Made by a program: the position numbers. From a virus (taxonomy: Duplodnaviria > Heunggongvirae > Uroviricota > Caudoviricetes): 64,000 bases of DNA. Location: IMG/VR virus record IMGVR_UViG_2737471833_000002; one strand, written 5' to 3'. Of the stretch, positions 3,001 through 6,000 are shown one piece after another (position 1 is the stretch's first letter; each line of letters begins with the position of its first letter).

Positions 3001-6000
3001 CGACAGAATTCGAACGGTCCATATTCAAATGGGCTGGTGGAAAATTTGGTGTTCTGGAACAAATCTTTCGCTATTTGCCAGAAGGGAAGCGCCTGATTGA
3101 ACCTTTCGTTGGTGGCGGAGCTGTCTTCATGAATGCCGGATACCAGGAAAATCTGCTAAATGATGTGAATGCTGACCTGATTAACTTTTACAAGACTCTG
3201 CAACGCGAGGCGCATTCACTTATCACTCTGGCACATCGTTTCTTCCAGGACTACAACACACAGGAAGGATACCTGGCAGTACGGAATGCGTTTAACAAAC
3301 AAGTCTATGATGATTTACATCGCGCAGCGGCGTTTTTGTTCCTGAACCGACATTGTTTTAACGGATTGACGCGTTACAACCAGGCCGGTGAGTTCAATGT
3401 CGGTTATGGGAAGTATAAAACTCCGTATTTCCCATTACAGGAGATGGAAGCCTTCCTCGGTGCGGAAGGGCGGTCTGAGTTTGTATGCGGTGATTTTGCA
3501 GCGGTGATTGAAGCTGCCGGAGAAGGAGATGTCATCTTTTGCGATCCGCCGTATGAACCGCTTCCAAATACAGAGGGATTCACGAACTATTCCGGTCATG
3601 ACTTTAAGTTTGAAGAGCAAAAACGCCTGGTGTCTCTGTTGACGGATGCTCATCGTCGAGGTGCAAAGGTTCTCATTACTAACAGTGGCGCGCCAAACAT
3701 CAGAGAGCTTTATCATGACAGTGGCTTCAGAGTGGAACCTCTTTTTGCCAGACGTTCTGTGTCTTGTAAGGGGGACACTCGAGGTGTAGCTCATGACGTT
3801 TTGGGTATATTGCTCTAATAAATTTATTAGTGTAATATCACCTCAATGAATCGTGATTTATAGAGCGATTTAGCTGTTAGCCGCGACAGGCGCGGCGGTA
3901 AGCATGGCTGGGCCTAGTCCTCCCAGACAAACCACCGAGTTGCCAGGTTGACCATGCGCCTAAGTGGCAACGCCGAAGTGCGTTACGAGCTTCCAGTTTG
4001 CCCATCTTCGGGTGGGCGTTTTTTTCAGGGTTTTCGTCATGGTTAGCGACTTTGCGGCGGTTTAGAAACTGGCCATTAAAGTAAATGCAAACGATGATCT
4101 GATGATGGTAGCGGCCTAAGAAGCCAGATGCCACGGGGTATGAGTCGTCCCCCGTCAAAAAATCGACCGCAGAGTGTCCCCGTCTGTGTATTAGGGAACG
4201 GGGAGGCACAACAGGTAAGGGCGCTGGTGTGATTAACCAGATGAACGAGAAGGGGCCATCTGTTGGTCAGCGTCCTTTCCTGTTGCGTTTTCTTTTCAGC
4301 GTAACAGCGGTGCTTAACAGCACTTTGGGTACAGTTCCACGAATTTACGGGTATATCCCGTCATGCTGAAGGCGCTAATCACGCTGGAAGCCAGGGTTGT
4401 GCATCCCCTGTTACCGAATTGCAGCCAGGGCGCGGTGCGCCGAAAAGCATACGGAGGTGGAAGCCCTCGCCGGAGACGTACCCGGCAAGTGATGGTGTAG
4501 CTCAGCGGTTAGAGCGGTTGACTGTTAATCAACGGGTCGATGGTTCAAATCCATCCACCATCGCCAATGCCGGTTTAGCTCAGTTGGTAGAGCGCCTGCC
4601 TTGTAAGCAGGATGTCAGCGGTTCGAGTCCGTTAATCGGCACCAGCACAACAGGTAAGGGTATTTTGCGACGTCGGAGATCGCCGAGCTTGGCAGAGGGT
4701 TCGAATCCCTACGAAGTACCCTTACCGTTGTGATGAATGCGCAGGCTGATGCGCGAAAGACATTGCAGCTATTGCGGAAAAGAGCTGTTCGGCGGGGCAA
4801 TTAAACGCCCGTGAGAGTCTGAAATAACCGCAAGCCGGAGATCAGCACCGGTCATCACAACACAACAGGTAAGGGCATTCTCCCTTATGGGGCTTGGCTT
4901 AAATGCATCGAGTGCTCTTACCGTTGTGATGAAGTGCAGCTCTTTGAAGCAACCAGAAGATAAGCATCTGGCTTCACAACATAAACCGCAGGAACGACCA
5001 ATAAACGGTAGTCCGTATGGAGAACACCCCGTTGAGGAAGAGGCCTGGCCGGAACCGTAACCGGCACTACAACGTTGAGAACACTGGCGTAACGGGGTCA
5101 TATCCCAATCTACGAATAAATGTTGCGTTGCAGCGTGACAACCAGTGTTCTCAACATTGTGGTGAATGCACAGGCTGATGTGCCGCAACTACAGTAGTGC
5201 GCGCTTTGCGGGGCTTGCTACAACCCTGTGTTGGAGTTCAGCACCGACCATCACAGTTTGATTCTCTGGCATGAGCATAACGCTGAAATAAGTCCAGTCT
5301 GGTGCGGCCCGATCACCCGCCGTTAGCTCCACGAAACGGAGCACGTAACAGGTAAGAGCATTCTCCTGTAACGGGTTCATATCCCAATCTACAGGTCCAC
5401 CAAGAATGCTCTTTCCGTTGCGGTGAATGCGGCTAAGCGCACGCGGGGAAATGGTTATATCTGTCCATTATTTCTCCTTGTTTCCACGTCCACGGTGGAT
5501 AACCAGCCAAAGGACACCGGGAGGAACCCGGCACCGCAATCTAATAAATATGTCACTTTTATTGAGGGATAACCAATGTTCGGTAAATTGTTCGGCAAGA
5601 AAGTCGCTTCTGCAAAAGTAGAGCTGAAAAAAGTTGAGAATCGCGATCTGATGGAGGCCATTATCGGTGGCTGTTTGTTGGTGTCTGCCGCTGATGGTGA
5701 AATCGAAAAAGAAGAAACAGCGAAACTTGATCAGCTTGTCCGCTCTAATCCGCGTCTTAGTCATTTTGGTAACGAAATTACTGCAACAATTACCCGCTTT
5801 ACCGAGCAACTTGAAGCTGGCTTCCGTGTTGGTCGCATGAATATCCTTCGCGAAATTGAAGATATCAAAAACGATCCAAAAGAAGCGGAAGAAGTATTCG
5901 TTAACATGCTGACAATTGCAGAAGCGGACGGTGAAATCGAGCCAGCAGAACACAAAGTACTGGAAGAAGTAGGCCGTCGTTTAGGTCTTCGTGTGGAAGA

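Follow-up and report, generated by a model that had tools for sequence, protein, structure and literature searches.

The window analysed here, a 64,000-nucleotide stretch of virus DNA (IMG/VR record IMGVR_UViG_2737471833_000002), is a P1-type phage-plasmid, and the subject of this report is a family of structured RNA modules lying in its ban operon. Positions 3800-5600 match a P1 isolate at 99.4% identity and an E. coli plasmid at 100%, and related sequence is found in more than 1000 plasmid records. By homology to annotated P1, the order of elements is dmt, the C1 operator with Pban, a leader, tRNA-Asn and tRNA-Thr. These are followed by about 930 bp without open reading frames (ORFs) on the plus strand, then by tciA, tciB, tciC, a tRNA with a CAU anticodon and ban. 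The ban transcript starts on the plus strand at a C1 operator palindrome of 16+16 nt accompanied by the Pban promoters (3807-3838), the homologous position in P1 (NC_005856) being Obanab/P1ban/P2ban. The leader of about 180 nt (3840-4025) ends on the same strand in an intrinsic terminator-like hairpin with a run of seven T residues (3999-4025), recognised by a terminator scan and by the P1 annotation. That annotation labels the leader a 'dicF-like region'; the Rfam DicF model has no match to it. tRNA-Asn(GUU) (4491-4566) and tRNA-Thr(UGU) (4569-4644), both on the plus strand, are called by ARAGORN and score 74.5 and 72.9 bits, respectively, with Rfam. The first protein gene of the transcript past the RNA array is tciA (5576-6010, plus strand), an ORF of the TerB family (Pfam TerB, 2e-14). 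A scan of the plus strand from 4026 to tciA detected neither a promoter nor a terminator consensus. The segment from 4.2 to 5.55 kb makes up the untranslated part of the ban operon, which C1 controls, and two kinds of RNA module, A and B, are interleaved there with the tRNA genes.

Module A is a long irregular hairpin, present in five plus-strand copies between the ban promoter and tciA. An earlier note on this DNA had described long-stem hairpin repeats around the tRNA genes. They are real and lie where it placed them, as judged from a covariance model (R1) built on other phages, from shuffled controls and from a repeat search that recovered the shared 5' arm, the 3' arm with its tail and the inverted-repeat arms. 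The count given then, at least four, referred to genuine units and becomes five with the unit at 5066-5164, whose arms are different.

A1 (4205-4287) scores 29.2 bits with R1 over 4205-4306 (E 3e-5, this and the other covariance-model E-values being rough owing to a short calibration). A2 (4644-4733), which carries a T-arm-like hairpin in its apical insert, scores 87.3 bits over 4644-4759 (E 2e-18), and A3 (4859-4929) 47.5 bits over 4859-4955. A4 (5066-5164; 61.7 bits over 5066-5188), also recognised as an inverted repeat, has arms GUUGAGAACACUGG/CCAGUGUUCUCAAC and an apical hairpin GGGGUCAUAUCCC; its arm sequences diverge from those of the other units but the architecture is unchanged. A5 (5342-5423; 64.6 bits over 5342-5445) is preceded by a small hairpin, GCUCCACGAAACGGAGC (5327-5343), that also precedes A in many other loci. 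All five fold alike, into a 6-bp lower stem topped, after a bulged A or a mismatch, by a long upper stem that ends in a branched or hairpin apex. Shuffle z-scores range from -4.7 to -6.9 (-4.7, -5.5, -5.4, -6.9 and -6.6 for A1 to A5), and the predicted fold is more stable on the plus than on the minus strand in 5/5 units. When R1 is run over the whole window its plus-strand matches are exactly these five (29.2-87.3 bits); the other matches are weak minus-strand echoes of the palindromes (22-27 bits) and a single noise match (8.6 bits). A1 is followed by no P2 hairpin or B domain (see below) but by UUUUCUUUU (4279-4300), a U-run without counterpart in phage D6. With this U-run, A1 could be a terminator or attenuator.

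Scanning IMG/VR for the seed CCGTTGYGRTGAATGC gave at least 120 loci, with about 70 distinct units of full architecture. R1 was built from 53 units of other phages, all P1-like sequences being excluded, and has 141 matches at E<=1e-6 over 96 other loci, including tandem pairs in several non-P1 phages. The module measures 70-100 nt. It comprises a conserved base, CACAAC/GUUGUG, a bulged A, GG/CC and a conserved non-Watson-Crick position, above which stand a covarying upper stem of 10-14 bp and a hypervariable apical insert. In the alignment of the 53 units, 94% of 1263 cells are paired, as against 30-64% in slid-partner controls, and none of 500 shuffles reaches any of the measures. Changes on both sides are found in 11 of 24 pairs (51 cells). 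Between lineages the upper stem is rewritten, as in AAGAGCAUUG/CAGUGCUCUU versus AAGCUGCUUG/CAGGCAGCUU, AAGCCAAAUCG/CGAUUUGGCUU or AAUCGCUUUG/CAAAGCGAU. The 5' arm, the upper stem and the B hairpins P2 and P4 are not forced by the seed. One stem position is U.G in 33/53 units and another is non-Watson-Crick in 39/50. Together with the covariation, these positions indicate an RNA on the plus strand. Conservation resides in the base and the linker that follows, not in the apex, which is the pattern expected of a protein or nuclease recognition site. At gathering thresholds, no Rfam family covers A in 16 other loci; A is not in Rfam 15 at all, and a full-text literature search for the consensus strings found no match.

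Module B, to which A is joined by the linker GRUGAA, forms a closed domain: helix P3 closes it, hairpin P2 comes first inside, the middle part is variable, and a second hairpin, P4, abuts the 3' strand of P3. The conserved 'tail' of the earlier note, GTGATGAATGCxCAGGCTGATG, turns out to be this linker plus the covarying P2, i.e. the first hairpin of B. P2 has 5 bp and a hexaloop GGCUGA, and its stem covaries (GCGCA/UGCGC, GCACA/UGUGC, GCGUA/UACGU, GCGAA/UUCGC). A conserved block 50-160 nt beyond P2, GCCGG-AGAUCAGCA-CCGGC-CACCACAA, corresponds to P4 and the 3' strand of P3. The latter pairs back to GUGGUG just upstream of the linker, again with covariation (GUGAUGA/UCAUCAC in B2, GCGGUG/CACCGC in B5). 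Complementarity between GCUGA of the P2 loop and UCAGC of the P4 loop would give a kissing pair, and in two loci (L079 and L113) both loops are changed, from GGCUGA/UCAGC to GGUCGA/UCGAC. In an alignment of 37 B units, the four helices are 96.7% paired, with double changes in 7 pairs; the kissing helix is 99.5% paired, its support consisting of one double-change event. A C/D-box or k-turn reading of GUGAUGA...CUGA was rejected, as A4, A5 and most relatives have GGUGAA instead and the loops of type-2 units lack CUGA.

Four B segments are present in the window, all on the plus strand, and were scored with a model, R2, built from type-1 B units. B2 (4726-4863; 90.3 bits) is closed by GUGAUGA/UCAUCAC, with P2 at 4739-4754 (loop GGCUGA) and P4 at 4834-4852 (loop AGAUCAGCA), and a kissing pair can form between GCUGA (4745-4749) and UCAGC (4842-4846). 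It is 96-98% identical to copies in lambdoid and T1-like phages. B3 (4924-4982), recognised by its fold and its repeat family, is a short degenerate B-like segment closed by GUGAUGAAG/CUUCACAAC to which R2 has no match. B4 (5155-5259; 61.4 bits) has the P2 loop GGCUGA and UCAGC in its P4 loop. B5 (5416-5542; 31.6 bits, E 4e-6) is a type-2 unit lying directly 5' of the tciA ribosome-binding site (RBS). The P2 hairpin is not present after A1 and is altered after A3 and A5.

B5 gives the sole non-tRNA Rfam match of the region besides noise, to STnc100 (RF02076), at 38 bits and E 5e-6 against a gathering score of 47. The range is 38-43 bits for its homologues in three relatives (L003, L004, L005) and 29.5-45.7 bits for type-2 B units from other phages, all below gathering. 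B2 and B4 have no STnc100 match; they belong to another subtype, whose GGCUGA/UCAGC kissing pair goes undetected by Rfam. Alignment of B5 and of a unit from another locus (L112) places P3-P2-P4 at positions 30-147 of the STnc100 model (31-147 for B5), and B5 shares with it the closing helix, an AAU linker, the first hairpin and the last hairpin, CCGGGAGGNNCCCGG, which is of the GGGAGG type and abuts the closing strand. PasD1 of enteropathogenic E. coli is a 173-nt Hfq-dependent small RNA (sRNA), as seen by northern blot, and PasD has many targets by ligation and sequencing of interacting RNAs (RIL-seq; PMC8550237). PasD1 starts exactly at the 5' strand of P3 and contains the same 5' domain as B, followed by a seed and a terminator. 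A preprint independently links PasD to STnc100 (10.64898/2026.05.13.724894). It also reports TerB gene neighbours for the Pas sRNAs, as tciA is beside the array, and these sRNAs are prophage late-region elements. Judging from these alignments, B and the 5' domain of the STnc100/PasD prophage sRNAs are distantly related. There are differences, however. STnc100 and PasD have their own promoter, seed and terminator and no A hairpin at their loci, whereas the B domains of the window are arrayed in tandem with tRNAs and have no terminators. Around B2, B4 and B5 neither a promoter nor a terminator consensus was found, and B5 is followed by the tciA RBS.

This kinship leads to one rival view of the whole family, in which the modules would act in trans, as regulators or sponges. 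A stable scaffold would be provided by the conserved base of A together with the frame of B, and specificity by the hypervariable insert, the B middle or a 3' single strand, for instance through pairing with RNAs of the host or of rival phages, possibly with Hfq. The Hfq dependence and RIL-seq targets of PasD (PMC8550237) speak for it, as do the many lambdoid modules that end with a single-stranded stretch and a terminator, and the variation of the inserts among phages and even among copies in one phage. sRNA genes, too, adjoin modules: isrJ (L030, 9495-9571) and Sib (L029, 1709-1862) lie immediately 5' of A on the same strand, their terminators being the hairpin before A. But no B unit of the window has a terminator or U-tail after it, B5 running instead into the tciA RBS. 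For most of the inserts, moreover, base pairing is predicted and not an open seed, and A is not part of PasD or STnc100. We regard this view as rather unlikely, though worth keeping in sight.

The association of the modules with tRNA genes is close. tRNAs occur within 1.5 kb in 19/70 loci and are on the same strand as A in 19/19. In the window, A2 begins 1 nt after the CCA of tRNA-Thr; in phage D6 an A unit begins 1 nt after tRNA-Ser, and in both the following A or tRNA directly adjoins the 3' end of B. A tRNA-Ser stands between the 3' end of B and the following A in D6 and P7, in a slot that the window does not have. This tRNA-Ser(UGA) is 87 nt long (D6, L004, 1907-1993; P7, L005, 1888-1974), and its best Rfam model is tRNA-Sec, at 43-47 bits against a gathering score of 47. 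Phage Ro157c2YLVW has a tRNA-Tyr between tRNA-Asn and tRNA-Thr.

The earlier note assigned the repeats a core resembling a tRNA T arm and thought that they might be decayed tRNA genes. The T-arm-like hairpin, AGGG-TTCGAAT-CCCT (AGGGTTCGAATCCCT, 4696-4710), occurs in A2 only among the five units. Elsewhere, under a strict definition (5-bp stem, loop TTCRANY), it is found in 7/70 apical inserts, at either end of the insert. The density, 2.1 per kb of insert, is 28-fold that of all fetched DNA with true tRNAs counted (0.076 per kb); 0.04 inserts per shuffle are expected. The T-arm-like hairpin is a significantly enriched but optional apical insert and not a core feature. A4 and A5 have another hairpin in common, GGGKUCAUAUCCC, seen again in lambdoid units in the form GGGCYCAUAACCC. 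None of the A or B units is scored by ARAGORN or by the Rfam tRNA, transfer-messenger RNA (tmRNA) and YrlA models, even at E<=10; the only tRNA calls in the region are at 4491-4566, 4569-4644 and 6285-6360. Over 3700-6700, Rfam at E<=10 reports these three tRNAs, the sub-threshold STnc100 match on B5 and otherwise noise (mir-142, mir-465 and Plastid-ycf2, on palindromes or tRNA antisense), with nothing for DicF, GOLLD, ROOL or the ribozyme families. The hairpin in A2, and the real tRNA-Ser between modules in D6 and P7, are what a decayed-tRNA origin has in its favour. It is extremely improbable, given that no tRNA model scores any unit, that T-arm-like hairpins are limited to 7/70 inserts at variable ends, that the conserved base, linker and P2 have no tRNA counterpart, and that the family is conserved and covarying, not decaying.

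A more elaborate connection with tRNA is conceivable at the level of architecture. B could be a tRNA mimic in which P3 stands for the acceptor, P2 for the D arm and P4, stacked on P3, for the T arm, with the loop pairing as elbow and, in many copies, a tail resembling NCCA. The tRNA machinery (RNase P and 3' trimming, perhaps also the CCA enzyme) would excise such a mimic, which would act as a decoy or handle. The dimensions seen in the alignment are suggestive: an 8-bp P3, a 3-nt linker, a 5-bp P2, a 5-bp P4 abutting the 3' strand of P3, and loop-loop pairing. So are the location in tRNA operons on the tRNA strand, the enrichment of T-arm-like hairpins in the A inserts and the occurrence of CCA 0-4 nt 3' of P3 in 20/47 type-1 B units. 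However, the likeness is one of architecture only, the tRNA-directed models being silent on both modules; CCA follows none of the B units in the window, and the CCA copies mostly share a longer motif, CCAAAYC, and may represent one lineage. We hold the mimic to be improbable. The same low credence goes to a broader version, in which A and B form a widespread but overlooked class of phage RNA that hijacks tRNA processing. B would be a pseudoknotted mimic excised from tRNA operons and late-operon leaders, A would be a switchable hairpin passing its 3' strand to B, for closure, after being cleaved, and the inserts, some of them true T-loops, would act as exchangeable specificity cassettes (such as decoys against tRNA-targeting host defences, or guides directed at host or rival RNAs).

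Stable RNAs other than tRNAs that lie near tRNA genes or mimic parts of tRNA have precedents in YrlA/Y RNA (RF02553) and the tRNA-like domain of tmRNA. The tRNA cluster of T4 contains small stable RNAs. The sole YrlA match (25.6 bits against a gathering score of 69) is an artefact spanning two true tRNAs, most units have no T-loop, and no rsr gene for a Ro/Rsr partner is seen among the surrounding ORFs.

The gap between tRNA-Thr and tciA was where the earlier note had expected the small P1 genes plp and upl, its premise being that they are absent. In fact, P1 (NC_005856) annotates both there, on the minus strand over the array and with predicted promoters, and the window has the corresponding minus-strand ORFs: a plp-like ORF of 139 amino acids (aa) with a TTG start (4769-5188) and upl, of 63 aa (5189-5380). 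If these encode Plp and Upl, the repeats could be a by-product of coding sequence. Several observations oppose this. The P1 plp overlaps trnT. In-frame stops, truncations and module-sized indels fall over plp and upl in relatives (L003, L127, L001, L004, L005); plp varies in length and in its ends, and upl is broken in L127 and has lost its start codon by deletion in Ro157c2YLVW. Neither product has a Pfam match, and the peptide ENALTC, found in both, is the reverse complement of the A 5' arm. Among 40 RefSeq records listed, 39 have no feature under 5340-5545, an interval that takes in only the last 41 bases of upl. The same sequences are, besides, non-coding in lambda and other phages. Because of the broken ORFs, the ENALTC correspondence and the lack of Pfam matches, plp and upl are probably annotation artefacts rather than genes, and the coding explanation of the array is most improbable. 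The prospect that the repeats were chance similarity within plp/upl coding DNA does not agree with these findings: the ORFs exist but are broken in relatives, and the repeats belong to an RNA family found in non-coding contexts of unrelated phages.

Those contexts are varied. A+B modules are carried by lambda and other lambdoid phages, T1-like phages, Sashavirus and Ackermannviridae, among temperate and virulent phages of enterobacteria alike. Phage lambda has a full A at 44785-44886 (L129, 986-1087; R1 59.4 bits), adjoining tR', the terminator of 6S RNA, whose T-run ends about 8 nt upstream. It is followed by a truncated B consisting of P4 and the P3 3' strand, without P2. The lambda records NC_001416 and J02459 bear no annotation at this A+B region. 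The order pR'-tR'-A-B recurs in several other lambdoid late operons; the StxS paper deals with the pR'-tR' transcript only, and a search for a P1 transcriptome found nothing relevant. The pL leader of mEp460 and Stx2a phages, downstream of the repressor gene and operators, holds two copies of A and a domain identical to B2. T1-like IME207 has a promoter, A and B, then tRNA-Ser and tRNA-Arg, and full modules are found in two virulent phages, Klebsiella phage Magnus (Ackermannviridae) and Salmonella phage Sergei. Fourteen of 70 A units have an intrinsic terminator 10-21 nt upstream (10-13 nt in 13 of the 14), lambda tR' being among these terminators, and the rest follow a small hairpin. A terminator-like site follows within 400 nt in 47/70 units, mostly at 100-280 nt. 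The long operons with modules in their leaders are those of P1 Pban, of the lambda late genes and, in mEp460 and Stx2a phages, of pL. The placement is punctuation-like: the modules are located at junctions of tRNAs, sRNA-like domains, terminators and mRNAs in long untranslated leaders. As a side observation, 39 nt of the A3 insert (4881-4919) are about 90% identical to a tRNA-cluster spacer, on the tRNA strand, of virulent Felixounavirus-like phages (Moogle, L134, 2001-2039). Only these 39 nt are shared in the Moogle region, which has no full A unit.

The location of modules in leaders downstream of Pban, pL and pR', with a terminator upstream in the P1 leader, is also what would be expected of cis-acting elongation elements that render the polymerase resistant to an upstream terminator or to Rho over a lengthy untranslated region, in the manner of nut, put or rrn boxA. 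The consensus 3' arm holds UGCUCUUU, which we take to be the boxA core, and then a GC hairpin, a nut-like layout, and mEp460-type phages have no N gene next to pL. Like HK022 put and the lambdoid nut sites, the modules are two-hairpin RNAs of early operon leaders with a boxA-like string. Unlike them, they occur in several copies per operon (up to five), downstream of a terminator and not before it, and also in virulent phages, within tRNA clusters. Changes in the boxA-like bases go together with changes in the 5' arm (AGCUUUCC, UUGGCUUUCC, AGCGAUCC; pairs 15-19 with 99-103), so that the helix is conserved and not the sequence, and these bases would be sequestered in a stable stem. Lambda, furthermore, already has antitermination from Q. 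Two specific candidates were discarded: a boxA/nut site, which would call for a single-stranded, conserved boxA (YGCUCUUUA), as the bases lie within a covarying stem, and a put site, as R1, the only means of comparison used, has no significant match in HK022 24000-40751 (pL, pR and the late region; best 15.8 bits). An elongation function is accordingly judged very unlikely.

The modules might, alternatively, be elements of DNA and not of RNA, either a non-autonomous mobile palindrome similar to miniature inverted-repeat transposable elements (MITEs) or palindrome-associated transposable elements (PATEs), or a recombination joint targeting hairpins, terminators and tRNA 3' ends. Frames are near-identical in unrelated phages while interiors differ, and units always lie just after a hairpin, terminator or tRNA. 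P1, P7, D6 and the window differ from one another by whole modules, with a D6 A2/A3 crossover inside the conserved arm. Repetitive extragenic palindromic (REP) sequences and bacterial interspersed mosaic elements (BIMEs), enterobacterial repetitive intergenic consensus (ERIC) sequences and MITEs are palindromic repeats of enterobacterial intergenic regions. They resemble the modules in being imperfect palindromes of 70-130 bp, often situated after terminators and transcribed into stabilising hairpins. A+B, in contrast, is phage-borne and not scattered over the host chromosome backbone, strictly oriented with respect to tRNAs and operons, covarying and coupled to a pseudoknotted domain. Compensatory changes keep the pairing, the frequent G.U pairs would be C.A on the opposite strand, covariation extends to the long-range P3 and the loop-loop helix, B is related to expressed sRNAs, and no transposase or integrase is consistently nearby in the contexts viewed. 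We consider a DNA-level element highly doubtful. A likeness to integron attC sites (AAC...GTT core, bulges, variable tip) was dismissed for want of an integrase and in view of the RNA-type covariation.

The interpretation that we favour, tentatively and at somewhat less than even confidence, is that the modules serve as cis-acting processing and stabilising punctuation for an untranslated polycistronic RNA. The earlier suggestion of structured small RNAs or processing signals is to this extent upheld, by the covariation, the strand preference, the 19/19 agreement with the tRNA strand and the lack of an internal promoter or terminator. The modules would fold during transcription and mark the cutting sites of host ribonucleases on the long untranslated precursor, the candidates being RNase III at the A stem of about 20 bp, RNase E at the single-stranded linker and RNase P at the helix base. 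An A stem of 18-24 bp with a fixed irregularity is of RNase III substrate size, the short single-stranded GRUGAA between two stable hairpins is a typical RNase E setting, and junctions placed 1 nt from a CCA end would require an endonuclease. In this way the tRNAs, the B-type RNAs and the tciABC-ban mRNA would become separate molecules. The hairpins left over would protect the newly made 3' and 5' ends from exonucleases and from 5'-end-dependent decay, and the dense structure would leave Rho little free RNA for loading. A switch may be built into the A-B junction, where GUUGUG has two alternative partners, the 5' arm of A and the 3' end of B. Once A is cut, this strand would become available and the downstream P3 could close, and removal of A together with closure of P3 would yield a B RNA with a 5' end matching that of PasD.

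A parallel exists in T7 early mRNA and in rRNA operons, where RNase III hairpins are set between the functional RNAs of a polycistronic transcript. The resemblance lies in the long irregular stems, the internal irregularity near the base and the stabilisation of ends after cleavage. There is no sequence relationship, and the A units differ in having large variable inserts and in being coupled to B; their cleavage is so far a prediction.

Several points weigh against the processing interpretation. Simple punctuation leaves unexplained the diversity of the inserts and of the B middle, the T-arm enrichment and the elaborate kissing-loop fold of B, and these same features keep alive the sRNA-scaffold and tRNA-mimic rivals. 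Many lambdoid copies end in a single-stranded stretch and a terminator, like trans-acting sRNAs. By CRISPR interference, plp, upl, trnT and tciA are non-essential for P1 plaques (PMC10695390), which indicates that the array is dispensable. The seed forces the 3' base and the linker, so that their invariance is by construction, and shared descent of the units means that the shuffle statistics overstate their independence.

A few neighbouring features deserve mention. Just 5' of the tciA RBS, the repeat search picked out TCTAATAAATATGTCAC (5533-5562), 74% identical to the half-site TCTAATAAATTTATTAG (3814-3836) of the Pban C1 operator; it could be a weak second C1 site. The CAU-anticodon tRNA (6285-6360) is called Met by ARAGORN, and its P1 homologue is annotated as tRNA-Ile2 (ileX-like), a label that would require lysidine modification. 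Upstream, the dmt ORF (531-3818) encodes 1095 aa versus 754 aa in reference P1. The insert (~759-1785) matches Pfam Hint_2, LAGLIDADG_3 and Intein_splicing within the C5-methylase half, between GGTPC and CQAFS, and looks like an intein with a homing endonuclease. The dmt of phage Ro157c2YLVW is of identical length.

The A+B module is a conserved, covarying RNA left without annotation in P1 and lambda, two of the best-studied genomes, and it has a link to the prophage sRNAs STnc100 and PasD, for whose 5' domain there has been no explanation so far. At the least, re-annotation of plp and upl and the creation of two new Rfam-type families are warranted. Should the role in processing and stability prove true, it would explain how tRNAs and sRNAs mature from long untranslated phage transcripts, and the module would represent a portable RNA part. 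If the inserts carry specificity, it would be a new kind of programmable phage RNA.

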